Assembly: GCA_040754075.1 (NCBI GenBank)
Contig: JBFMDH010000001.1
Location: 166,262-230,261 of the forward strand
Length of the DNA: 64,000 nucleotides
Direction of reading: 5' to 3'
Source of the DNA: Acidobacteriota bacterium
GTDB lineage: Bacteria; Acidobacteriota; Blastocatellia; UBA7656
In this document: positions 252-60,545 of the stretch, one piece after another
Numbering within the stretch: the first letter of the stretch is position 1
Layout of the letters: the number at the start of each line of letters is the position of its first letter
Notes under the pieces: generated by a model
The model's input: the letters and a program-made list of their open reading frames with translations, nothing else
What the model was told of the DNA's origin: nothing
Databases searched by the model: none
Program-made: the position numbers and the translations under genes

Positions 252-1652
252 CTAGGATTCAAAAACTGTTGTGTCGAGTTCACTGAAAAAAACCTCGTGC
301 AATTTAGAAATGACCATTTCGACATCGCTTGCAGCCATCACGATGTTCATCATAATCGGCGATGAACCGTGCAATATCGCATTGACTGTGACGGCTTCCA
401 ATGCTTTAAAGACGCGACCGGCAAGCGTTGCATCTTCGTTAAGCTCGGTGCCAACCAGAGAAATAATCGCTTTGTCATGTTCAATGGTCGCGTTGGTGAA
501 TTTAGAAATTTCCGCGAGCAAGTCACGTTCGGTCGTTTCATCCATCGCCACGCTATCGACCGCAAAAGCCATATTCAATCCCGACACCGCTGTGATGAGC
601 GGCGCGACGCGGTGTTTAATCATTTCGTTGATGATGGTTTTTAGTGAATCTTCCGGCAAAAAGCTTTGTTCCTCTTCGCCGATGGTTTCAATGGTCGCGT
701 TAATCACCGTAATCGGGCGTTTATAGGCGATTGATTTAATCGCATTGGCGCAGCGTTGAACGCGCTCGGTGATTGCGGTGCCCGTCGCTTCAGGCGCTTT
801 GGAATTGTAAATATGCACCGGAATATTTTTTCGCGCCGCCGGGTGAATGGCTTTCGGATGCAAGACCTTGGCGCCGAAATAGGTGAGCGCCGCGGCTTCG
901 GTAAACGAACAGGTCTTGACGGTTTTTGCGCCTTTATAAATGCGCGGGTCGCAAGTCATCAGCCCCGAAACATCTTTCCAGATTTGAATATCATCGGCAT
1001 TCATTGCCGCGCCGATGATCGCTGCGGTGTAATCCGAGCCTTCAAATCCGAGGGTTGTGGTCGCGCCCTCGCGGGTTGAGCCGATGAAACCTTGGATCAC
1101 GGCTACCGTGTTGTCTTCCGCGAGCGGCACAATCACTTGCTGCAAATTGGCGTTAGTGATTTCAAAAATCGGTGATGCGCCGCCAAATCGTTCATCGGTT
1201 TTGATGAGTTCGCGGGCATCGAGAAGTCTGGTCTTTAACCCGCGTTCGGCAAAGGCATCGGCGACGATTGCCGACGACAGCAATTCACCATAGGCGAGAA
1301 TTTTATCCAGACCGCGCGGCGGCACTTCGCCTAAAATCGCTAACCCTTCAAGCAGTTTTTTCAACTCGGCGAAATATTTTTCGATTAAATCAAACGCGCT
1401 CCATTGAGTTTTAATCAACTGGCGCGCTTCGCTGGCGTGTCGCGCTTTCAAATCGGCAACGATGGCGAGAGTGGTTTTGGCATCACCCGCCGCCGAGGCT
1501 TTTGCCGCTTGCAGAAGTTTGCGCGTCGTCTTGCCCATTGCCGAAACCACGACCGTCGGGCGAAGCGCCACCCGCGCTTTAACAATCTCTGCGACTCGTT
1601 CGATGCAGGCGGCATCTTCCACAGAAGTGCCGCCAAATTTCATTACTATCAT
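252..1652 (-). CDS. lysC: aspartate kinase
   Basis: 466 aa ORF. N-terminus MIVMKFGGTSVEDAACIERV is the classic aspartokinase KFGGTS motif. C-terminal ACT-like region. Adjacent to asd. Confidence 0.93.
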   Translation of the reverse strand: MIVMKFGGTSVEDAACIERVAEIVKARVALRPTVVVSAMGKTTRKLLQAAKASAAGDAKTTLAIVADLKARHASEARQLIKTQWSAFDLIEKYFAELKKLLEGLAILGEVPPRGLDKILAYGELLSSAIVADAFAERGLKTRLLDARELIKTDERFGGASPIFEITNANLQQVIVPLAEDNTVAVIQGFIGSTREGATTTLGFEGSDYTAAIIGAAMNADDIQIWKDVSGLMTCDPRIYKGAKTVKTCSFTEAAALTYFGAKVLHPKAIHPAARKNIPVHIYNSKAPEATGTAITERVQRCANAIKSIAYKRPITVINATIETIGEEEQSFLPEDSLKTIINEMIKHRVAPLITAVSGLNMAFAVDSVAMDETTERDLLAEISKFTNATIEHDKAIISLVGTELNEDATLAGRVFKALEAVTVNAILHGSSPIMMNIVMAASDVEMVISKLHEVFFSELDTTVFES

Positions 1653-1657
1653 AGATT

Positions 1658-1691
1658 CAGTAGGCAGCCGGCAGTAGGCAGCAGGCAGTAG
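1658..1691. repeat. heptamer tandem array (AGTAGGC-type), left arm of the inverted pair flanking the four-helix-bundle gene
   Basis: cagtaggcagccggcagtaggcagcaggcagtag. Reverse complement of 2123-2152 matches about 26 of 30 positions by eye. Confidence 0.8.
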
Positions 1692-1728
1692 ACAATTTCA
1701 TTTTTGAGTTTATTGTTTCTTACCATTT

Positions 1729-2088
1729 CTACCTTTGAAGAGAATTAGAAAGCCCGTTAATTGAACGACCAATTTCTGATGTAAGCACGATTATGTTTTG
1801 TGAAGCCTGTGGCGGCAAATAACCGAGCCTTTCAGCTATCAGTATTTGCGTTTCGACTTCGCGCAGAGAACCATAAGCGATGGAGAGAAAGTGTGCAAAC
1901 TCTCCAGCAGACTTGCGTCCTTGCCCCTCCGCAATATTAGACGGAATAGATATGGCTGCTCTGCGAAGTTGGCTAGTTAATCCATAAATCTCTTCTTTGG
2001 GAAAATTCTTCGTCTCAGAATAAACTGCTTCAACTAAATCCATAGCTTTTTGCCAGACTATTAAATCTCTGTAATTCTGACTTGCCAT
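1729..2088 (-). CDS. four-helix-bundle protein (23S rRNA intervening-sequence protein family, TIGR02436-like)
   Basis: 119 aa. YRDLIVWQKAMDLVEAVY...LTSQLRRAAISIPSNIAEGQGR is the characteristic family signature. Confidence 0.85.
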   Translation of the reverse strand: MASQNYRDLIVWQKAMDLVEAVYSETKNFPKEEIYGLTSQLRRAAISIPSNIAEGQGRKSAGEFAHFLSIAYGSLREVETQILIAERLGYLPPQASQNIIVLTSEIGRSINGLSNSLQR

Positions 2089-2122
2089 ATTGATTGAAAG
2101 TTTTAATAAACCAAAAATAAAA

Positions 2123-2152
2123 CTGCCTACTGCTTACTGCCTACTGCCTACT
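2123..2152. repeat. heptamer tandem array (CTGCCTA-type), right arm; overlaps the asd stop codon
   Basis: ctgcctactgcttactgcctactgcctact. 7 nt period. Inverted relative to 1658-1691. Confidence 0.8.
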
Positions 2153-3203
2153 AATCCAGCATTCCCTGAGCTTTCATAATTTCCGCATTGAGGATTGCCG
2201 CGCCGGCCGCGCCGCGAACCGTATTATGCGACAAAACGACGAAACGAATATCGAACACCGGGCAAGTGCGAATGCGTCCGACAACGGCGCTCATGCCGTT
2301 GCCTGCGTCGCGGTCAAAGCGTGGTTGCGGGCGGTCGCGCTCGCTGGTGACGATAACCGGTTGGGCGGGCGCAAACGGCAATTTCAACTCCTGTGGCAAC
2401 GAACGGAAATTGGCAAGAACCTCTGCGACCTCGTCGGGGGTGGCTTTCTTTTCGAGTTCAACGGAAACGCATTCCATATGCCCGTCTTCAACGAAGACGC
2501 GATTGGTATGGGCGCTGATTTTGCAATCGGCAAAACGAATTTTATCGCCATCAAACGTGCCCATGATTTTCAACGGTTCGGTTTCGACTTTGTCTTCTTC
2601 GCCGCCGATAAACGGAATCACATTGCCGAGCATATCGATTGCCGAAAGTCCCGGATAGCCCGCGCCCGAAACCGCCTGCATCGTCGAAACGATCAAGCGG
2701 TTGACGCCGAACGCCTGATGTAGCGGCGCAATCGCCATCACCAAGCCGATGGTCGAGCAGTTCGGATTGGTGACGATTGCGCCGTTCCAGCCGCGCCGTT
2801 CTCGTTGGGTTTTAATTAAGCTGAGATGTTGGTGATTGACTTCGGGTACAAGCAAAGGCACGTCTTCATCCATGCGATGATTTTTTGAATTGCTCAAGAC
2901 GATGTAACCGGCGCGCGCGAACGCCTCTTCGACTTCGCCTGCAACCGAAGCGTCGAGTCCCGAAAAGACGACTTTGCAATTGAGGTTGGGTTCACAAGAT
3001 TTTACTTCTTTGTCTTTCAGCGCATCGGGGATGGGCGAATATTGTCGCCACAGGGTCGCGTCTTTGTAAGCTTTGCCCGCCGAACGGTCAGAGGCGGCGA
3101 GTTCCGCAGTTTCAAACCACGGATGATTTTCCAGTAATTTGACGAATTTCTGTCCGACCGCTCCGGTCGCGCCCAATATGCCTACAGGAATTTTGTTACT
3201 CAT
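2151..3203 (-). CDS. asd: aspartate-semialdehyde dehydrogenase
   Basis: 350 aa. N-terminal GILGATGAVGQ Rossmann motif, internal NPNCSTIGL active-site Cys region, SGAGYPG. Confidence 0.93.
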   Translation of the reverse strand: MSNKIPVGILGATGAVGQKFVKLLENHPWFETAELAASDRSAGKAYKDATLWRQYSPIPDALKDKEVKSCEPNLNCKVVFSGLDASVAGEVEEAFARAGYIVLSNSKNHRMDEDVPLLVPEVNHQHLSLIKTQRERRGWNGAIVTNPNCSTIGLVMAIAPLHQAFGVNRLIVSTMQAVSGAGYPGLSAIDMLGNVIPFIGGEEDKVETEPLKIMGTFDGDKIRFADCKISAHTNRVFVEDGHMECVSVELEKKATPDEVAEVLANFRSLPQELKLPFAPAQPVIVTSERDRPQPRFDRDAGNGMSAVVGRIRTCPVFDIRFVVLSHNTVRGAAGAAILNAEIMKAQGMLD

Positions 3204-3565
3204 AGATTCTCTCTTTATAAAGTGGTTGATGATTAAAGCTGCATTTAGATGCCGCCATCGAACCGGATGAAATGAAAATTAAGTGAATAAGCTTAGCGGT
3301 GATGTGTTGGCTCTGACAACTGACAATAGCGGTCAGAGCTATCGTTTGCAGGTTTTGGAAAAGCGTTTGGCAGACAGCGAGGAGGTTTTTGCTGTTTGAC
3401 TGAAATTTAATTTTCTTAATTCACCAGTTAAATTCATAACCTTTCCAAAACGCATTTCACTGAAGTCGCCGGATTATAGCCGATAATAAGCGGATTTTGA
3501 AAGCAAACTTCTGAATTTTTGCTTGTCACGCAATAAAAAATCGCAGCAGGTTTAATCGCCCGGCG

Positions 3566-4447
3566 TTATTGTTTGCGAATTTTGGCAAGGTGTTTCAAAA
3601 ACGTTTCAGCGTCTTTGGCTTTAAGCGCCAGCGCAAAAAGTTTTTCGAGCAAGGCGGCATCGTTGATAGTTGCGATTTTTGTTTCGATGTCGAGACCGGG
3701 AAATTTCTGCTCTACGAGCATCAGTAACGCTTTGGCAATGCCTTCGCGCTCGCCGATTTGTTCGCCTTCTTCAAGCACCATCTGATAGAAACTCGATTCT
3801 TTTAATTCTTGTAAGGGAATCATACCTTTCTCCAAAATCATTTCCAGCAAGCGGACTCGATTATAACGCAACCCGCCCGGCATAAGAAAGTGTACGCCTA
3901 AATCGCGTTGCTTCTGTTTGTCTTTCACAGCGCGGAGGAGTTTAGCGCCGACTCTTAAATCCTCCGCGTCGCCTTTCATCAGCGGAATGAACGGCAAAAT
4001 CCCTTCACGTTTGAGCGCCAGGAAATCTCTCGCTGAACACTCCCAGATTTTAGTCAGGCGAAATGATGATTCGATTTTAAGCGAACCGGCGCGAATAATG
4101 CCTGAATGTGGAACCGTTTTTGGTAAACCGCGTTTCGTTGGTAACAGAATATTGCTGTAAACCGGTAAGCGATATTTCATCCATAAACGCGCGTCATAAT
4201 CTGGCATTCGCTCAAGCAACTCGGCTTTCCATTCAATCTAGGCTTCAGGGTGTACAATGATCTCTTTACCTCCGCGTCGCACCAAATAAACCTGATCAGT
4301 GAGTAAAGTCGAAACACTCAATTCAAGCGGCAACGGTTCAATCTCTGCCCGTTCACCGGGTTTCAAGTAACCAAGAAGAATTAAAAGCGATTCGGCATCC
4401 TGTTCAGCAAAATATTTGAATGCCTGATCATAAGGTTTCGTGCTCAA
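3566..4447 (-). pseudogene. Rpn-family PD-(D/E)XK nuclease / putative transposase with DUF4351-like C-terminus, copy 1 (in-frame TAG, TTG start)
   Basis: ORFs 4238-4447 and 3566-4219 are in the same frame, separated by one TAG at 4238-4240 (...VHPEA*IEWKAELLERMPDYDARLW). The intact-looking paralogue at 13718-14302 reads VHPEAQTQWNDDVLTRMPEYDARLW at the same place. Confidence 0.7.
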
Positions 4448-11380: not shown

Positions 11381-11549
11381 AATTGCGGATTGCGGATTGC
11401 CTGGATTTATAACTGGTTTTCACTTTCATGCCTAGATCACGGTTGCGCAGTAATAATGAAAGCCAGGAAAAAGAAATTGATTGATCTGCACACATCAAGC
11501 AAAGCAGAGATTTGAAAAAAGACAATCCGCATTTCGCAATCCGCAATTG
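11381..11549. repeat. inverted (ATTGCGG)n arrays enclosing a ~120 bp non-coding segment in the nuoA-nuoB spacer
   Basis: Left arm aattgcggattgcggattgcc (11381-11401). Right arm caatccgcatttcgcaatccgcaattg (11523-11549). Same repeat unit as 27362-27390 and 28280-28327. Confidence 0.8.
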
Positions 11550-25488: not shown

Positions 25489-25537
25489 TTTTAACTTTTA
25501 ACTTTTGTCTTTTTAATTTTGCCTTTTAACTTTTCAT
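25489..25537. repeat. (TTTTAAC)-type heptamer array abutting the stop codon of the M20 peptidase gene
   Basis: ttttaac ttttaac ttttgtc tttttaa ttttgcc ttttaac ttttcat. Strict 7 nt phasing. A shorter related run lies at 49055-49091. Confidence 0.75.
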
Positions 25538-27361: not shown

Positions 27362-27390
27362 CAATTGCGGATTGCGGATTGCGGATTGCC
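27362..27390. repeat. (ATTGCGG)4 heptamer array, left arm flanking the GIY-YIG cassette
   Basis: caattgcggattgcggattgcggattgcc. Near-perfect inverted match to 28280-28313. Confidence 0.85.
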
Positions 27391-27492
27391 GCTGCCAACT
27401 CATTCACCTTCACTTAAATATTTAACCCCGACAACCAAACATAGACTTGCCATCGCTAACGCTAAATTTAGTGACTAAAGGTGCAAGATATT

Positions 27493-28116
27493 CTACGCTT
27501 CAAAAAGTTCAGGTAACCCATATAAAAGAACTGTAGAGGTACTATTAACTAAAAACGGTTTCTCTTCGATCCAACGAGGAGCAAGAGCCATACCTTTATC
27601 TGGAATGGTACTAATAGGTTCTTCTGCTGAATAAAGTAAATTCATAATGGCTGCTTCTATTCTTGCAAGACTTCTACGTTCAGTGTTCAAAGGAGCAAGA
27701 AATATCCGAAAAGCAGAAAGCAAAGATTCTATTGGAAGTTCCAGTTCTTGATAACGAGAGTGAAACAATTGCTTCATTTCAGGAGTATTCGTAGACTTGC
27801 CCATCCACATACCATGCCAAAGTTCAACCCTCTTACCATTTTGCAAACTCTCAGGATCAAAAATTGTATAGGTTCCTTTTCTATAAGTGGCTATGTGTTC
27901 TTTAAGTCGCTTTTTAAAGGGTCTTGTAGTCCAGCCAGCCATATAGATTAAATACCCATTATTGTGTTCAACAGTAAAAAGATAAATTCCTGATTGCTCA
28001 ACTACTGGAGATTTTAAAAACAACTCTCCTTCACAACCTTGTAAAACTAGCGGACCTTTCCATGAAAGTAAGTAACTATCATGATCAGTATCATTGAGCA
28101 TAATTTTATTTGCCAC
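27493..28116 (-). CDS. GIY-YIG nuclease-domain protein, otherwise uncharacterised
   Basis: 207 aa. SGIYLFTVEHNNGYLIYMAGWTTRPFKKRLKEH fits GIY-(x9-11)-YxG-x-T-x(5-6)-R-x3-H, as in I-TevI and UvrC N-domains. The gene is visibly AT-richer than its flanks (by eye). Confidence 0.55.
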   Translation of the reverse strand: MANKIMLNDTDHDSYLLSWKGPLVLQGCEGELFLKSPVVEQSGIYLFTVEHNNGYLIYMAGWTTRPFKKRLKEHIATYRKGTYTIFDPESLQNGKRVELWHGMWMGKSTNTPEMKQLFHSRYQELELPIESLLSAFRIFLAPLNTERRSLARIEAAIMNLLYSAEEPISTIPDKGMALAPRWIEEKPFLVNSTSTVLLYGLPELFEA

Positions 28117-28175
28117 CTATCGACACAAAGCCGCCGAACTTCTATTTGAGAGCGGCTTACAAAATAATTCGCTGA

Positions 28176-28239
28176 GGTTGAGCAAGCGGTCTTTGACTAC
28201 GTCGTTATGACTTACTTGGTTGAGCAATCGGTCTTTGAC
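28176..28239. repeat. two direct copies of a 22-mer (ggttgagcaaNcggtctttgac), 42 bp apart
   Basis: 28176-28197 ggttgagcaagcggtctttgac and 28218-28239 ggttgagcaatcggtctttgac. The reverse complement recurs twice at 61083-61129. Confidence 0.75.
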
Positions 28240-28279
28240 CGCGTAAGGAATCGCAATCAAAGACCACTTGTGCGGCGCT

Positions 28280-28327
28280 CAATCCGCAATCCGCATTTCG
28301 CAATCCGCAATTGGAAAATCCGCAATT
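28280..28327. repeat. (CCGCAAT)n heptamer array, right arm; overlaps the serS stop codon
   Basis: caatccgcaatccgcatttcgcaatccgcaattggaaaatccgcaatt. Confidence 0.85.
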
Positions 28328-33619: not shown

Positions 33620-33641
33620 CCTTTAAAAACCTCAACTCCGG

Positions 33642-33719
33642 TTATTGGTCACTGGTCATTGGTCATTTGTAGAAGGCTTGACAAATCACTAATGACAAAG
33701 GACAACTGACGAATGACTA
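33642..33719. repeat. inverted (TTGGTCA)-type heptamer arrays; overlaps the stop codon of VWA paralogue 3
   Basis: ttattggtcactggtcattggtcatttg ... caaatcactaatgacaaaggacaactgacgaatgacta. Confidence 0.75.
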
Positions 33720-34661
33720 ATAAACATACCCCTGCTTGTGATAAAGGTCGCCCTCAGCATTGAGGAGCTTGACTTTGATTTTGCGTTCTTTGCCGGTTTT
33801 ATCCTGATTGCTCGGCGTGTAATAGACCACATATTCGCGGCGCAAATCTTCTGCGACTTCGGTAAACGAACGGAATAATTCAGCCTTTTGCGAGGGCAGG
33901 AAGACCTGTCCGCCGGTGGCTTCGCAAAGCATTTCCAATTCTTTATCGGGGTCTGCTGCCACTGTGCCCGCGCCGGTGCCGGTGAAATTTTTGGTGCTGA
34001 TTCCGAAAATCGTCACATCAAAACGTTGAGCGATTTCAATGGCATCTTTCAAGCTTTTATCGCTTGCGGTATCTTCGCCATCCGAAAGAATCACCAGAAT
34101 TCGCCGCGCTTCGCTATCGGGAACCGTCGCCATTTTCTCTTCAATGACCCGATAGACGCCGTCAAACAGTTTAGTGTAGCCGCTGGCTTTCAACTGTTTA
34201 ATGGCTTTGGAAATCTGCTCCAGCGAAGCCGTGAAATCCTGATGCAATTCGACATCGGAATCGAAACTGGCGACCAGAACTCTATCCTTTCGACGATAAG
34301 AAGTAACCGTAGCTGCGAAATCATCGGCGGCTTCTTTTTCAACCGGCAGTTTGAGTTTTACGCTGTTGCTGGTGTCGATCAAAATTCCGACATTGAGCGG
34401 CAATTCGCTGGGCGATACGAATTTGTTAATCGCCTGCTTTTTACCATCTTCGTAAATTTCAAAATTCGATTGCGCCAATCCGCCCAGGAATTTGGCTTTG
34501 CGTTTTACAGTAATCGGCAGACGCACTTCGGTAATGCCGATACCGATTTGTTTGTCATCATTTTTCTTGTCCTGGGTTGGTGGCTTTTGTGAAAAAGCCA
34601 AAGCATTGGTTAAAGCAACGAAAAAGGTGACGAGAAGTGAGATTACAATGGCGCGTTTCAT
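33717..34661 (-). CDS. secreted VWA-domain protein (TIGR03436-like), paralogue 3
   Basis: Start at the internal ATG (MKRAIVISLLVTFFVALTNALAFSQ). VGILIDTSNS. VILSDGEDTAS. C-terminal HKQGYVY. Confidence 0.8.
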   Translation of the reverse strand: MKRAIVISLLVTFFVALTNALAFSQKPPTQDKKNDDKQIGIGITEVRLPITVKRKAKFLGGLAQSNFEIYEDGKKQAINKFVSPSELPLNVGILIDTSNSVKLKLPVEKEAADDFAATVTSYRRKDRVLVASFDSDVELHQDFTASLEQISKAIKQLKASGYTKLFDGVYRVIEEKMATVPDSEARRILVILSDGEDTASDKSLKDAIEIAQRFDVTIFGISTKNFTGTGAGTVAADPDKELEMLCEATGGQVFLPSQKAELFRSFTEVAEDLRREYVVYYTPSNQDKTGKERKIKVKLLNAEGDLYHKQGYVY

Positions 34662-36429: not shown

Positions 36430-36501
36430 GTAATGAGTGATGAGTGATGAGTGATGAGTTTAATACTCCCCGCTCATTACTCATTACTCATTACTCATCA
36501 C
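36430..36501 (+). repeat. inverted heptamer arrays forming a long hairpin favoured on the plus-strand RNA
   Basis: gtaatgagtgatgagtgatgagtgatgag (36430-36458), 14 nt loop, ctcattactcattactcattactcatcac (36473-36501). About 25 of 29 Watson-Crick pairs plus three G-U pairs that would be C-A mismatches on the opposite strand. Confidence 0.75.
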
Positions 36502-38360: not shown

Positions 38361-39652
38361 TTTCACGATATACACGCCCGCAAATGGGCGCGATTTGGAC
38401 AGAACAGAATCGCTTTCAAAAATGGCTCGATGTGGAAATCGCCGTCTGCGAAGTTCACGCAGAGATGGGCACGATTCCCGAAGCTGCCGTCGCCGAAATC
38501 AAACAGAAAGCGGCTTTTTCGGTTGAGCGTATCAAGGAAATTGAAACCCTCACACGCCACGATGTCATCGCGTTTACCACTGCGCTTGCTGAAAACATCG
38601 GCGAAACTTCACGCTTTGTGCATTACGGACTCACTTCATCGGATGTTGTGGATACGGCAAATGCGCTGCTGCTGCGTGATGCCGCAAAACTCATCCTTGA
38701 TGATTTAGCTCAACTCGGTGAAGCGTTGCGCCGTCGCGCCTTTGAACACAAAGACACCGTGATGATTGGTCGCACGCATGGCATGCACGCGGAACCGACG
38801 ACGTTTGGTTTAGTGCTGGCGCTCTACTTTGCCGACAATCAACGCAACCTCGAACGCCTGCGGCGGGCATTGGAAACCATCAGCTACGGGAAAATATCGG
38901 GCGCGGTCGGCACCTTCGCCAATCTCGACCCCGAAGTTGAAGAGCGCGTCTGCCAGAAACTCGGACTAAATTTCGCGCCGATTTCCACGCAGGTGATTCA
39001 ACGCGACCGCTACGCCGAATTTCTTTCAACGCTTGCCATCATTGCCGCATCAATCGAAAAAATCGCACTGGAAATCCGCCACCTGCAACGCACCGAAGTT
39101 CGCGAAGCGCAGGAGCCATTTTCAAAAGGGCAAAAAGGTTCATCGGCAATGCCGCATAAACGCAACCCGGTGACCTGCGAACAACTCTGCGGCTTATCAA
39201 GAGTGGTTCGCGCCAATGCCGGTGCGGGATTCGAGAATGTCGCGCTGTGGCACGAACGCGATATTTCGCATTCATCGGTCGAGCGCGTGATTCTCGCCGA
39301 TTCATCCATTCTGGTCGATTATATGCTCGCGAAAGCTCATTGGTTGATTGATGGGCTGGTGGTTTTCGATAAGCGTATGCGTTATAACTTTGAATCGCTC
39401 GGCGGCGTGACTGCAAGCGGGCAAATTTTATTGGAACTCACCCGCAAAGGCGTTTCGCGCGAAGATGCTTATGCGATTGTGCAACCGCTGGCGATGCGCG
39501 TCTGGGATGAAGGCGCGAAATTCAATGAACTGGTTTTACAAGATGAGCGTGTGACCGCGAAACTCACACGCGAAGAAATCGAAGCCGTTTTTGATGTCCA
39601 ACATCAATTGCGGAATGTGGAAAAAATTTTTACAAGAGTTTTTTGTCAGTAG
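38357..39652 (+). CDS. purB: adenylosuccinate lyase
   Basis: MISRYTRPQMGAIWTEQNRFQKWLDVE. SSAMPHKRNP signature loop. Start ATG at 38357 overlaps the vapC stop (ATGA). Confidence 0.95.
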   Translation: MISRYTRPQMGAIWTEQNRFQKWLDVEIAVCEVHAEMGTIPEAAVAEIKQKAAFSVERIKEIETLTRHDVIAFTTALAENIGETSRFVHYGLTSSDVVDTANALLLRDAAKLILDDLAQLGEALRRRAFEHKDTVMIGRTHGMHAEPTTFGLVLALYFADNQRNLERLRRALETISYGKISGAVGTFANLDPEVEERVCQKLGLNFAPISTQVIQRDRYAEFLSTLAIIAASIEKIALEIRHLQRTEVREAQEPFSKGQKGSSAMPHKRNPVTCEQLCGLSRVVRANAGAGFENVALWHERDISHSSVERVILADSSILVDYMLAKAHWLIDGLVVFDKRMRYNFESLGGVTASGQILLELTRKGVSREDAYAIVQPLAMRVWDEGAKFNELVLQDERVTAKLTREEIEAVFDVQHQLRNVEKIFTRVFCQ

Positions 39653-39657
39653 CCCGT

Positions 39658-39685
39658 AGTCCGTAGTTGTTTTCAACTAAGGACT
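39658..39685 (+). terminator. 12 bp stem / tttt-loop hairpin right after the purB stop
   Basis: agtccgtagttg-tttt-caactaaggact (11 of 12 pairs). No downstream U-tract, so it may act in processing or stability rather than termination. Confidence 0.4.
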
Positions 39686-39713
39686 CCAGACTCCAGACTC
39701 CAGACTCCAGACT
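39682..39713. repeat. (GACTCCA)4 heptamer array between purB and purS
   Basis: gactccagactccagactccagactccagac. Confidence 0.8.
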
Positions 39714-55500: not shown

Positions 55501-55877
55501 ATGCCGTGTTGATTCAAGGCGTAAATGTGTTGGCGCTGGCTAAACCCGAAACCGGCGCTCACCTGTTTTACACGGCTAAAGAACAACTCGTGCCGTTGCA
55601 AATTCACGTCTTGCCGGTAATTGACCATTCCGCAGCCGCGACGATTCGCCGGTTTGCTGAAAGTCAGAAGAGGCGATTAAGCGAGCCGGTCGATACCAAC
55701 GAAACCGATTTAAACGAGGCATCGGTTATTCGGGTTTATGAAGAGAACGGCGCGACGCTTGATTTACGCTCAGGACTGATGACGCTCAAGATGCCGACGA
55801 CGAAAGAACTGCGCGCCTTGTTACTTGCGGCTTTGCCATTGCCAATGGAGATGCAATCGGTAGTCGGTAGCCGGTAG
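52551..55877 (+). CDS. atypical ClpA/ClpC-like double-AAA+ ATPase with novel N-domain and C-terminal release-factor-like module (paralogue 2)
   Basis: 1108 aa, GTG start.
- NBD1: GERLVGKT; Walker B ILYFDDLL.
- NBD2: GPTGVGKT, VLFDEIEKAH, TSNLG, GARALKRLLEREL.
- LGF at aa 635-637.
- C-terminal aa ~785-1108 is RF-like (ETGAHLF, IRVYEENGATLDLRSG). Confidence 0.85.
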   Translation: MNITLPIYIQKPAPQDTLPPTHILRPLFFPYIEVQGEDLNRAVTKLAQKIRHECDRLGKAMRHDQLSKFGFAPDLEDRFLKLTLDLGSRKAECNFLFVVMQTVGRKIAFTPALADLWFEIHRGETLVNRATEVLSHYFRQKQKREGNDALRPEAFSVSGKAWVTTLDISINPPARAPKLVQNLFALLGEAPQMDGAEELNRVGRCLDYLYPDDLQRVIFRETETEALTAILKSQDKRPVLLIGERLVGKTAIIHEYVHRAVSQRHSKFDAKNQVWLIAPQRLISGMSYVGQWENRLLAILKVAKKKQHILYFDDLLGLYQAGQSASSSLSVADVLKPYVEKREVRILGEITPEAFRVFQERDRGFADSFHLLPVKEPDEDKTFRILLHLMRELERKHRATFSTDVFPTVMDVQRRYTRDAVFPGKAAIFLQQLAVKYRHERVTRDEVLQEFHAKSGFSLNFLNDENKLTRQEVIEAVGNTVIGQEAALAACADVVSMAKARLNDPDRPLASFLFLGPTGVGKTQCAKSLAAYLYGDGDKLIRFDMNEYSSPYAVARLVGTFHQPEGLLTSAARRQPFSVVLFDEIEKAHPDVFNLLLQVMGDGRLTDALGRTVDFTNAMVILTSNLGVKEAAKNLGFHRDRERDGQVYTQAAEKFFKPEFFNRLDRIVPFARLGREEVMQIAEGLIQQVFAREGLVRRKCILQVDERAMARIVEEGYHPQLGARALKRLLERELTQPVARQLATLKPDAPTLIKVYPAASELKVTVDSLKGATLNDESARLIEGVAPKQIVELAEAAVDRIESQAAKMSPQGLINPDAVDATQLAYFQIREQARRARELCEKVAAKIKPTGKPLVSRSRGRSIAASQFTLRQVSVGDLWQRLIEAGDVRQLMRELLTTAQPYGERLEDYLSELTRETALLEVIAQSNDEVSTHQALMLIQSLDEAFKVERERLAKIYHELFTYKLGSRAELLTGNQEAAALHSDAVLIQGVNVLALAKPETGAHLFYTAKEQLVPLQIHVLPVIDHSAAATIRRFAESQKRRLSEPVDTNETDLNEASVIRVYEENGATLDLRSGLMTLKMPTTKELRALLLAALPLPMEMQSVVGSR

Positions 55878-55885
55878 CCGGTTAT
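55858..55885. repeat. (CGGTAGC)-type heptamer array overlapping the last codons and stop of AAA+ paralogue 2
   Basis: cggtagt cggtagc cggtagc cggttat. Encodes ...SVVGSR*. Confidence 0.75.
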
Positions 55886-60429: not shown

Positions 60430-60545
60430 AGTCGGCAACCGGCAACAGGCGATAGGCAGTTAAAACGCCAAATAAATCCTTTTCCTTTGAAAAATCTTTA
60501 TAAACTGAATTTTTACTGTCTGCTGTCTACTGCCTACTGCCTACT
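60430..60545. repeat. inverted GGCA/CTGCCTA-type heptamer arrays after murA (same family as 1658-2152)
   Basis: agtcggcaaccggcaacaggcgataggcag (60430-60459) ... ctgtctgctgtctactgcctactgcctact (60516-60545) followed by tttgttt. ctactgcctactgcctact is identical to 2134-2152. Confidence 0.75.

Follow-up and report, generated by a model that had tools for sequence, protein, structure and literature searches.

The window (the whole stretch of DNA that was analysed, 64 kb in length) carries on its minus strand the gene order asd, a 119-aa four-helix-bundle (4HB) gene of the S23p family (PF05635), and lysC. The 4HB gene lies between two inverted heptamer arrays, referred to here as arms, and the junction contains the following features, in the order of transcription:

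2151 to 3203, minus strand: asd (aspartate-semialdehyde dehydrogenase), the upstream host gene (Pfam PF01118 and PF02774)
2122 to 2152, minus strand: 5' arm in the transcript, (TAGGCAG) x 4.4, period 7 (Tandem Repeats Finder; kept in the orthologous cassettes L002, L081 and L082)
2104 to 2121, minus strand: U-rich inner stem extension (UUUUAUUUUUGG...) between the 5' arm and the AT-rich 4HB leader (paired in the MFE fold)
1729 to 2088, minus strand: 4HB/S23p gene (23S rRNA-IVS protein family), 119 aa, the cargo of the cassette (PF05635, TIGR02436, PDB 2GSC)
1692 to 1706, minus strand: A-rich inner stem extension (CAAAAAUGAAAUUGU), the complement of 2104-2121 (repeat pairing, fold and orthologue alignment)
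1658 to 1691, minus strand: 3' arm in the transcript, a (CUGCCUA)-type array x 4.9, period 7 (Tandem Repeats Finder)
252 to 1652, minus strand: lysC (aspartokinase), the downstream host gene (Pfam PF00696 and ACT_9)

The arms meet the host genes closely. The TAG stop codon of asd (2151-2153) is in phase within the first unit of the 5' arm, and the TAG and TAA triplets of this arm cover all three reading frames. At the other end, the first ATG of lysC (1650-1652) lies 5 nt past the 3' arm and is followed 9 nt into the gene by another conserved ATG; no Shine-Dalgarno sequence is found between the 3' arm and the lysC ATG. The unit of ~500 bp was previously described as filling the asd-lysC junction exactly, which is correct for the asd stop, located inside the array, but the gap before the lysC ATG is 5 nt rather than the 6 nt given there. 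The cassette is probably co-transcribed with asd and lysC, since a promoter and terminator scan of 1400-3500 gives no signal above shuffled expectation. An Rfam scan of 1400-2400 finds nothing credible (the single match is a chance-level DicF, E = 0.61), and eight related loci have no Rfam matches. The site is the asd-lysC junction and not the 23S rRNA gene (helix 25 or helix 45), where intervening sequences (IVSs) are found.

The assignment of the gene at 1729-2088 to the rRNA-IVS-type family, made in the preliminary description from the sequence alone, is confirmed by profile searches. Residues 7-112 of the 119 match PF05635 (1e-40; 138.7 bits against a cutoff of 33.8), the protein also matches TIGR02436 at 5.8e-39 (132.7 bits; cutoff 24) and NF008911 with 150.2 bits (cutoff 137), and residues 5-119 align to the solved four-helix-bundle protein Xanthomonas XCC0516 (PDB 2GSC; E = 3.8e-28). 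The protein also shows weak matches to models of Avd, an accessory protein of diversity-generating retroelements (PF22296, 35.8 bits; NF033474, 30.1 bits; PHROG 3206, 3e-11), with which it shares a four-helix-bundle fold superfamily. Identity as Avd itself was considered and rejected: the scores are below the curated cutoffs (40 for PF22296 and 80 for NF033474), and the neighbours are asd and lysC, with no reverse transcriptase and no template or variable repeat next to the 4HB gene. Avd genes are not known to carry heptamer arms. The 4HB gene is under purifying selection, as indicated by a dN/dS of 0.09-0.11 against its asd-lysC orthologues (0.07-0.11 overall, at dS 1.2-1.4). Exact-sequence look-ups of the asd and 4HB proteins of the window returned no match; the 4HB protein does, however, have an identical entry that stems from an NCBI Acidobacteriota MAG (P0001). 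The S23p family is described as a homopentameric toroid, according to the citation of Lin et al. 2006 in PMC4990558.

Direct and inverted repeats within 1500-2400 consist of the heptamer arms only. The inverted arrays of about 30 nt said to bracket the gene are indeed present, with 27 of 31 positions complementary between 1659-1689 and 2122-2152. In a second register, 1670-1706 pairs with 2112-2148 over 37 nt (32/37 complementary, 86%), so that the pairing of the stem runs past the heptamers into the T-rich/A-rich extension. The 14-mer CTACTGCCTACTGC, with up to two mismatches, has 10 matches in the window against 0.10 expected, and all of them fall in three arrays: the two arms of the cassette and an array located after murA (see below). 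When the minus-strand transcript from 2160 to 1645 is folded, it forms a terminal stem of ~53 bp with an MFE of -168.6 kcal/mol (z = -6.4; none of 100 shuffled sequences folds as well), and the last codons of asd are paired at the base of this stem. Four asd-lysC orthologues share a consensus stem of 40 bp with two compensatory pairs, both of which sit in the inner extension (alignment columns 34/100 and 36/98). The arms are much better conserved than synonymous sites, and 28 of the 32 columns of the 5' arm are invariant across the asd-lysC orthologues. We infer that the arms pair into an RNA duplex of ~40-53 bp, with the asd stop at its base, that reaches the lysC AUG.

The asd|lysC junction occurs in several states in related Blastocatellia. 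All relatives that have the 4HB gene at this position (L002 and L081-L085) have flanking arrays of identical type, and two others (L005 and L006) have an empty junction with a spacer of 0-2 nt, both as anticipated for an inserted, repeat-bounded unit in the preliminary description. In addition, one relative contains a decayed remnant of the 4HB gene (L031), two contain arms of the cassette's heptamer unit without the gene (L010 and L016), and two have no gene although they branch from among lineages that bear the cassette (L066 and L029). The comparison of these junctions shows that the cassette was inserted at an originally overlapping asd/lysC stop/start junction, that it was inherited vertically under purifying selection in one Blastocatellia sub-lineage, and that it has decayed or been lost in other lineages, sometimes leaving a heptamer hairpin.

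The association between gene and arms extends well outside this junction. Of 75 metagenomic 4HB homologues found in unrelated contexts (56-73% identity), 60 have a flank-to-flank inverted heptamer repeat scoring at least 12, as compared to none of 330 controls; a clear inverted repeat within 150 nt is absent in the other 15. Nearly all of these arms are of the NAGTNGN type, and the 5' units contain AGT in 51 of 59 non-redundant cases. The host contexts are unrelated and include asd-lysC, BREX, a cas operon, RNR, lpx and pdh. A Phycisphaerae homologue (71% identity), for instance, lies between the BREX genes brxC and pglX and has identical TAGGCAG arms. Arms with other units accompany the copies on cyanobacterial plasmids (42-52% identity), and inverted flanks are also present around 4HB copies on viral contigs and around a 58%-identical copy found upstream of asd, on the opposite strand, in an Acidobacteriota MAG (L032). 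Of 53 intergenic cassettes, 48 have a 5' arm that begins where an upstream ORF of the same direction ends (median gap -3 nt), and 37 are followed by a downstream ORF that starts a median of 4 nt past the 3' arm. The type of arm unit clusters by protein clade (Mantel r = 0.376; 0 of 5000 permutations as high). Together, the enrichment over controls, the co-variation of unit and clade and the TAGGCAG copy in Phycisphaerae show that the arms belong to the 4HB gene rather than to the site, and that they travel and co-evolve with it. The expectation that other members of the family would be flanked by inverted arrays is thus borne out. The suggestion that the unit is mobile holds in part: it follows from deep comparative data, but recent transposition was not seen. 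No near-identical cassettes occur in different contexts and the closest such pair is at most 78% identical, which suggests that mobility is ancient or rare.

The reading that we favour, and regard as probable, is that 1658-2152 is one copy of a cross-phylum S23p/4HB cassette with inverted heptamer arms, which has the architecture of the ORF-bearing 23S rRNA IVSs and resides in an mRNA operon. Some of the same observations could also be explained if the 4HB protein were a domesticated, sequence-specific binder of the heptamers, in RNA or DNA, with the arrays serving as operators that regulate neighbours such as lysC; the unit would then not be selfish. Such a binder would account for the co-variation of arm unit and protein clade, although simple linkage predicts this equally well. 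It would also fit the strong purifying selection on the protein, the conservation of the arm sequence beyond complementarity, the fact that in most loci the 3' arm ends a few nucleotides short of the downstream start, and the match between a homopentameric toroid and the ~4-5 units of each arm (Lin et al. 2006, as cited in PMC4990558). In addition, loci that bear the 4HB gene contain about ten times more extra heptamer arrays (31 additional arrays per 281 kb) than loci of other phyla (6 per 518 kb). However, the unrelated host contexts suit a hitch-hiker better than a dedicated regulator, the gene has been lost repeatedly with no visible consequence for the operon, and the Coxiella protein is apparently not made (PMC4990558). 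We consider regulation by a domesticated binder unlikely.

Within the window, period 7 is the only period between 4 and 12 with arrays scoring at least 12 (8 versus 0), and the window contains at least seven inverted heptamer pairs with differing units. In 403 kb of Blastocatellia loci there are 70 period-7 arrays versus at most 2 for any other period in this range, and 50 of 72 Blastocatellia arrays have an inverted partner. Heptamer arrays are a genome-wide feature that had been missed in the preliminary description. Most of the Blastocatellia heptamer hairpins contain no 4HB gene and are built of many other, unrelated units. One that is built of related units is the following:

60430 to 60545, plus strand: gene-less hairpin with arms 60430-60459 and 60516-60545 and a 56-nt loop

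This hairpin has an EPSP-synthase-family (MurA/AroA) gene on one side and a gene of the HIT family on the other, and it folds with -31.9 kcal/mol (z = -4.3). It had been put forward as a cargo-less version of the cassette. The hairpin does exist, without a gene and with related units, but its pairing is weaker than implied (19/30 Watson-Crick pairs, or ~24/31 when counted by hand with plus-strand G-U pairs), and it is one of many heptamer hairpins, most of which have other units. A 207-aa ORF (27493-28116) between (ATTGCGG)n arms was also considered as a family-wide cassette and was rejected, as its homologues (L174-L177) lack heptamer arms.

The prevalence of paired arrays in Blastocatellia would fit a different order of events, in which a resident hairpin of these genomes (REP-like, an mRNA stabiliser or attenuator) came first and a bare 4HB gene landed in its loop. 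Most Blastocatellia relatives do have a gene-less heptamer hairpin with other units at asd-lysC, and the (ATTGCGG)n hairpin at 27364-28311 encloses an unrelated GIY-YIG-fold gene whose homologues elsewhere are without arms. However, TAGGCAG arms flank a homologue in another phylum and another operon, 80% of the family in unrelated genomes has arms, nearly all of the NAGTNGN type, and the arm unit tracks the protein phylogeny. These comparisons largely refute a hairpin-first origin, which we consider very improbable.

In 12 loci, the cassette lies within a PglX-like methylase ORF that reads through it. The host ORF runs in the -1 frame relative to the 4HB gene and stays open over the full length of the cassette, with 0 stops versus a mean of 3.4 elsewhere. 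Removal of these copies by RNA splicing was considered and rejected, since a host ORF kept open across the cassette would be needless if the cassette were removed. Cleavage inside such cassettes would destroy the host mRNA, and processing therefore cannot be obligatory.

The intragenic copies also bear on the possibility that the arms act as DNA, either as cruciform or hairpin recombination sites or as phase-varying slippage repeats, and that no RNA stem is used. Slippage by 7 nt in a PglX-like ORF would switch the frame, and near-identical contigs do differ in length by one heptamer (L086 versus L087; L183 versus L184). No frame-shifted ('OFF') pglX copies are seen among the intragenic loci, although recognition by open frame would miss them. 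In Xanthomonas, inverted heptamer pairs have been treated as DNA structures (PMC4692102). The strand-specific signals are divided: over all cassettes, sense-strand G-U mismatches (239) are in no clear excess over A-C (211), a comparison to which repeat-register ambiguity adds noise, and among four gene-less hairpins the sense strand gives the better fold once, an equal fold once and the poorer fold twice, but one-sided stem changes in the asd-lysC orthologues are mostly G-U on the sense strand. The polarity of the arms, however, is fixed with respect to transcription, with the G-rich 'CAGT.G.' arm 5' on the sense strand in essentially all cassettes and the G/T-rich arm first in 11 of 12 gene-less hairpins between co-directional genes. 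RNase III also acts on such stems in experiments with Coxiella (PMC4990558) and Haemophilus (PMC12721329). A role at the DNA level only is, in our estimate, improbable.

A cassette with paired RNA arms has parallels in the ORF-bearing 23S rRNA IVSs (Coxiella burnetii helix 45; Leptospira, Brucella and Haemophilus), which likewise contain an S23p (PF05635) ORF, have a size of ~430-500 nt and end in inverted repeats, whose pairing gives a long stem that closes off the ORF as a loop. The Coxiella IVS has a 28-bp terminal stem whose 5' strand consists of tandem heptamers in variable copy number (GACAGAT x 2-3 at the 5' end), and RNase III cuts at the first repeat (PMC4990558). The IVS analogy drawn in the preliminary description thus has support in the literature. 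Unlike the 23S IVSs, the cassette is hosted by the protein-coding asd|lysC pair, and other copies are found inside ORFs or in defence operons. Its arrays are longer than those of Coxiella, with 4-5 units on both arms. Purifying selection maintains its 4HB gene, in contrast to the ORF of Coxiella, which is decaying and apparently untranslated. Excision by RNase III has been shown for the Coxiella IVS and is putative for the asd-lysC cassette. In the literature covered, which is incomplete and may leave out earlier reports, the single-organism description of Coxiella is the only link between S23p/4HB genes and heptamer arms.

Intergenic tandem heptamers are also known as the STRR repeats of cyanobacteria, the GGGAATC repeats of Xanthomonas and the TAACTGA repeats of Beggiatoaceae and cyanobacteria. 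The GGGAATC arrays are often in inverted pairs (70-75 convergent pairs; PMC4692102), the TAACTGA arrays often end just upstream of start codons (PMC4679880), and the TAACTGA and STRR units share an ACTG/CAGT core with the heptamer of the asd-lysC cassette. These reports make no link to S23p/4HB genes and do not treat the arrays as cassette ends; the arrays have been interpreted as G-quadruplexes or translational regulators. In the 5'-UTR of Haemophilus influenzae hmw1A, tandem heptamers form one arm of a long hairpin upstream of the gene, RNase III cutting raises downstream expression, and the repeat number slips (PMC12721329). Unlike the cassette, the hmw1A hairpin has a single heptamer arm and no gene in its loop, and it is a promoter/5'-UTR contingency locus rather than an inserted cassette. 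MITEs, REP/BIME elements and integron cassettes are likewise short intergenic units that have inverted repeats at their ends and form hairpins, and integron cassettes also contain a single promoter-less ORF. The arms described here differ from a fixed TIR or attC in being tandem arrays with clade-specific units, and they lie on both sides of the ORF. No target-site duplication is present outside the arms (GGAT|TAG... versus ...CTACTG|AATCT), and no transposase, RAYT or integrase is found in the cassette or in the ~5 kb of ORFs around it, where asd and lysC are housekeeping genes and a 217-aa ORF (3566-4219) has no Pfam match; an enzyme acting in trans is conceivable.

The occurrence of the gene-plus-arms unit across phyla, in operons, in defence genes and, from the literature, in rRNA, suggests that it behaves as a portable, self-insulating cassette. 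By analogy with the Coxiella IVS and the Haemophilus hmw heptamer hairpin, the duplex would most likely insulate the host genes from the insert and is a probable RNase III site, at which cleavage would release the 4HB mRNA and free the lysC start. The arms are also likely to be the cis-acting ends for copying the cassette to new sites. A period of 7, which equals 1 modulo 3, means that an array of TAG-containing units would stop translation in all frames; it would also allow the length of the arms to slip.

A broader and more tentative scheme, which we offer as rather doubtful, is that S23p/4HB cassettes constitute a widespread, unrecognised class of autonomous mobile elements, of which the rRNA IVSs are a special case. 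In this scheme, an Avd-like pentamer would recognise the arrays of its own clade and promote copying, perhaps via RNA and a cellular reverse transcriptase. Its non-autonomous derivatives would be the abundant gene-less hairpins and the STRR-type repeats that are found in Blastocatellia, cyanobacteria and Xanthomonas, and the copies in ORFs would be cases of dual coding.

Since the early 1990s, the 23S rRNA IVSs and the S23p ORF within them have lacked an explanation, and the bacterial heptamer repeats (STRR, TAACTGA and GGGAATC) are a second puzzle of this kind. The asd-lysC locus suggests that the two are connected. The cassette offers a simple explanation for the published 'associations' of S23p genes with CRISPR loci, and the analysis also points to a source of annotation errors, in which pglX genes are split or extended and start codons are mis-called within arrays. 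The IVS-type architecture is seen at operon junctions, in BREX and CRISPR-Cas operons and inside reading frames, and our analysis suggests that the S23p family normally has this architecture, an ORF between inverted heptamer arms.

On the minus strand, the 119-aa open reading frame (ORF) lies between asd and lysC and is a full-length member of both PF05635 (23S rRNA-IVS protein; 1e-40) and TIGR02436 (four helix bundle protein). The nearest solved structure to this four-helix-bundle (4HB) protein is Xanthomonas XCC0516 (PDB 2GSC). The features of the locus are:

252-1652, minus strand: lysC (Pfam)
1658-1691: 3' arm of the transcript, a period-7 array of 4.9 units
1729-2088, minus strand: 119-aa 4HB ORF
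2122-2152: 5' arm of the transcript, a period-7 array, (TAGGCAG) x 4.4
2151-3203, minus strand: asd (Pfam)
3566-4219, minus strand: 217-aa ORF upstream of asd, no Pfam match

Repeat, pairing and fold analyses confirm that inverted heptamer arrays surround the 4HB gene, as the preliminary description had proposed. The arms are complementary at 27/31 positions, their pairing extends inward via a U-rich/A-rich stretch (37 nt, 86%), and the minus-strand RNA folds with a terminal stem of ~53 bp (z = -6.4). A 14-mer of the TAGGCAG array occurs 10 times in the window, against 0.1 expected. The 5' arm opens with the TAG stop of asd; the gap between the end of the 3' arm and the first lysC ATG is 5 nt, not 6. 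The element is classified as a cassette of IVS type that sits in an mRNA operon.

The arms accompany the gene well beyond this locus. A homologue (71% identity) between BREX brxC and pglX in a Phycisphaerae MAG has TAGGCAG/CTGCCTA flanking arrays, and a metagenome scan yielded 80 homologues (56-73% identity) in highly varied contexts, 75 of them with sufficient flank. A flank-to-flank inverted repeat is present in 60 of these 75, as against 0/330 random placements in the same loci, so that inverted arrays also flank other members of the family; an array lies upstream in 55 metagenomic homologues and downstream in 59. Copies on viral contigs likewise have arms, as do those on cyanobacterial plasmids (Nostoc GAGTAGG, Calothrix GGGTGTA, Anabaena AGGTGAC), which are annotated 'S23 ribosomal protein' or 'four helix bundle protein'. 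Even a 34%-identical homologue from an Ignavibacterium album MAG (L078, 854-1210) has inverted arrays, of period 6 (GGCGGA GGCTAA GGCTGA); a portion of its 5' array is duplicated farther upstream.

The arm units vary by locus (CAGTAGG, CAGTGGT, CAGTGGG, AAGTGGG, TAGTGGA, CAGTTGC and others), and both arms of any one locus share their unit. The AGT-containing version is invariably the 5' one on the sense strand, and 51/59 non-redundant 5' units contain AGT. Unit type tracks protein clade (Mantel r = 0.376, 0/5000 permutations as high), which, together with the association of arms and gene across phyla, supports the proposal of an IVS-like cassette moving as a unit. The exact filling of the junction, claimed for the window copy alone, is a family trait, since in 48/53 intergenic cassettes the first triplets of the 5' arm hold the stop of a co-directional ORF, and in 37/53 a co-directional ORF begins a median of 4 nt past the 3' arm. 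Many Acidobacteria-like contigs (L127, L131, L132, L147, L152, L157, L158, L161) carry the cassette at one recurrent junction (upstream ORF end ...RGVIK, downstream ORF start MKLGLIAGNGKFPF) with arm units that vary among contigs (CAGTGGT vs CAGTTGC); the recurrence could reflect either an insertion made long ago or a preference for the site. One Acidobacteria-like 4HB clade (L146 1744-1876, and equivalent positions in L159, L162 and L170) has a conserved stretch of ~110 nt between 5' arm and gene, GGGAAATCCACAG...GTGA..TCACA...GCATGG...GATGC...GTGAGGCC.AT.GTC. Rfam contains no match for it, its consensus structure is not convincing, and it may encode an N-terminal extension or act as a promoter or leader.

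Other Acidobacteria, as well as ~27 Blastocatellia loci, keep the order asd-lysC, with the following spacers.

Spacers at the asd-lysC junction in relatives
0-20 nt, stop and start overlapping or adjacent: L005 (ATGA), L006 (TAATG), L021-L025
Heptamer hairpin with locus-specific units: L001, L003, L007, L008, L015, L018, L027, L029, L066
TAGGCAG arms, short loop, no gene: L010, L016
TAGGCAG arms with a 47-residue 4HB gene remnant: L031
Full cassette: L002

Empty sites thus exist among relatives, with spacers of 0-2 nt in L005 and L006. The nearest homologues of the 4HB protein (79-82% identity; L081-L085) all lie in the order asd-4HB-lysC, and they and L002 carry the same TAGGCAG arms. In a tree of asd and lysC, one clade holds the cassette-bearing lineages, with the gene-less L066 and L029 nested inside, and the remnant L031 and the gene-less TAGGCAG hairpins L010 and L016 fall in other clades. 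Read most simply, the cassette entered an overlap of stop and start long ago and was then inherited vertically, with repeated losses. The hairpin loops at this junction in L016 (7053-7278) and L004 (7053-7229) hold a second, unrelated nested palindromic insert.

Comparison of the window 4HB gene with its asd-lysC orthologues gives a dN/dS of 0.09-0.11 at a dS of 1.2-1.3 (0.07-0.12 over all orthologue pairs), and the protein is therefore functional. Although a dS this high would leave neutral DNA scrambled, the 5' arm is invariant in 28/32 columns; the spacers of orthologous cassettes show no conservation. Two double changes in the inner extension of the stem are compensatory (UA to CG, AU to GC), and one-sided stem changes in orthologues mostly give G-U pairs on the sense strand. 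Near-identical contigs show arm-length slippage of one unit, the 5' arms of the BREX loci L086 and L087 differing by exactly one heptamer.

Heptamer arrays are not confined to the cassette. For periods 4 to 12, strong arrays occur in the window for period 7 only (8 vs 0), and inverted pairs with differing units occupy several intergenic sites:

11382/11529: inverted pair, span 11382-11547
27364/28286: inverted pair
33646/33691: inverted pair, span 33640-33721
36433/36472: inverted pair, span 36433-36498
39645/39682: inverted pair, span 39645-39713
60430/60516: inverted pair
25489-25534 and 55857-55882: further heptamer arrays, intergenic

The hairpin at 60430-60545, after murA, had been described as a cargo-less version of the cassette; the hairpin is present, but just 19/30 arm positions are Watson-Crick. 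The arrays at 11382, 25489, 33640, 36433, 39645 and 55857 are mostly short-loop inverted pairs (units ATTGCGG, GGTCATT, GATGAGT, GACTCCA, TTTTAAC, CGGTAGC) and sit between co-directional genes, such as nuoA and nuoB, or an M16 peptidase and a metallo-beta-lactamase-fold gene. The hairpin at 36433-36498 is perfect on the sense strand only, via four G-U pairs (-45.4 vs -35.3 kcal/mol).

The window comes from a member of the Blastocatellia (Acidobacteriota), its asd being 74-87% identical to that of Blastocatellia MAGs. The same bias extends to other loci of this class: Blastocatellia loci (403 kb) contain 70 period-7 arrays and at most two of any other period, and loci from other phyla (518 kb) contain 6 period-7 arrays. 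An inverted partner exists for 50/72 arrays, with loops mostly <100 nt, and only three of these Blastocatellia loci hold a 4HB gene or its remnant. L026 (5082-5473) is more complex: six direct (ATTGATG)n arrays are followed by two inverted ones. Extra heptamer arrays are ~10 times commoner in 4HB-gene loci than in other-phyla loci, and about a quarter of them (8/30) use the resident unit. This excess, a correlation only, would fit either arrays that are derivatives or a factor acting on them in trans. The G/T-rich arm precedes, relative to transcription, in 11/12 gene-less hairpins, a polarity that a role at the DNA level alone would hardly account for. Two results limit the idea of RNA processing: sense-strand folding of gene-less hairpins is not consistently better, and over all cassettes G-U mismatches are not in excess of A-C (239 vs 211).

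A possible RNA-level mechanism is suggested by two precedents. The 428-nt Coxiella 23S IVS has the architecture of the window cassette, namely an S23p ORF, a 28-bp terminal stem and, at its 5' end, two to three tandem GACAGAT heptamers of strain-dependent copy number, the first of which starts at the RNase III cut (Warrier et al. 2016, PMC4990558). In the Haemophilus hmw 5'-UTR, RNase III cleavage of a heptamer-array hairpin raises downstream expression (PMC12721329). By analogy, the arms would pair as RNA and the duplex would be processed, which may release the 4HB mRNA and free the lysC start, which lies without a Shine-Dalgarno at the stem foot.

The idea of RNA processing is also limited by cassettes that lie within PglX-like (Eco57I/MmeI-type) N6-methylase genes, since these evidently are not removed from the methylase mRNAs. 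There are 12 such metagenomic loci (L104 1414-5352, L125 1426-5352, L118 1315-5349, L096 1-2610, L094, L111, L114, L122, L126, L153, L154 and L173), with three different insertion sites; the viral-contig copies L179, L182 and L185 lie, as judged by position, at one of these sites. In all 12, a single unbroken host ORF crosses both arms and the 4HB gene, in the 4HB -1 frame, which has 0 stops here against a mean of 3.4 elsewhere (7 in the window copy). Selection has thus purged stops from the host frame and kept the 4HB frame. To judge from the reading frames, the insertion amounts to a dual-coding one of ~150 aa, and heptamer arms within an ORF would double as frame-switching repeats.

No transposase, integrase or reverse transcriptase is present within ~5 kb among the ORFs listed around the window cassette, no target duplication is visible there, and no near-identical cassettes in different contexts were found among the compared loci; the closest such pair, L086 (intergenic) and L094 (intragenic), both BREX loci, shares 78% identity. 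ORF-bearing IVSs in rRNA, heptamers in the Coxiella IVS and over-represented heptamer repeats were already known, the last with inverted pairs in Xanthomonas (PMC4692102) and in cyanobacteria and Beggiatoaceae (PMC4679880). In the searchable literature we did not find inverted heptamer arms as a rule for the 4HB family outside rRNA, co-variation of arm unit with 4HB protein, a cassette occupying operon junctions and ORFs, or such a cassette as the explanation of the family's CRISPR 'association'.

Several copies lie in defense operons or on plasmids. In the Phycisphaerae MAG GCA_018055905.1 and related contigs (L086-L093), the TAGGCAG-arm cassette lies between brxC and pglX, and the gene caller began the 4HB ORF at a GTG within the array (131 aa), probably a mis-called start. 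On Nostoc edaphicum plasmid pNe_5 (L186), a (GAGTAGG)n-arm cassette is antisense between two ribonucleotide reductase subunit genes, and on Anabaena sp. 90 plasmid pANA02 (L189) an (AGGTGAC)n-arm cassette separates cas6 from cas4 in a type I-D CRISPR-Cas operon. The '23S rRNA IVP' has been scored as CRISPR-associated (PMC10910872), and hitch-hiking of the cassette into such operons may account for that score.
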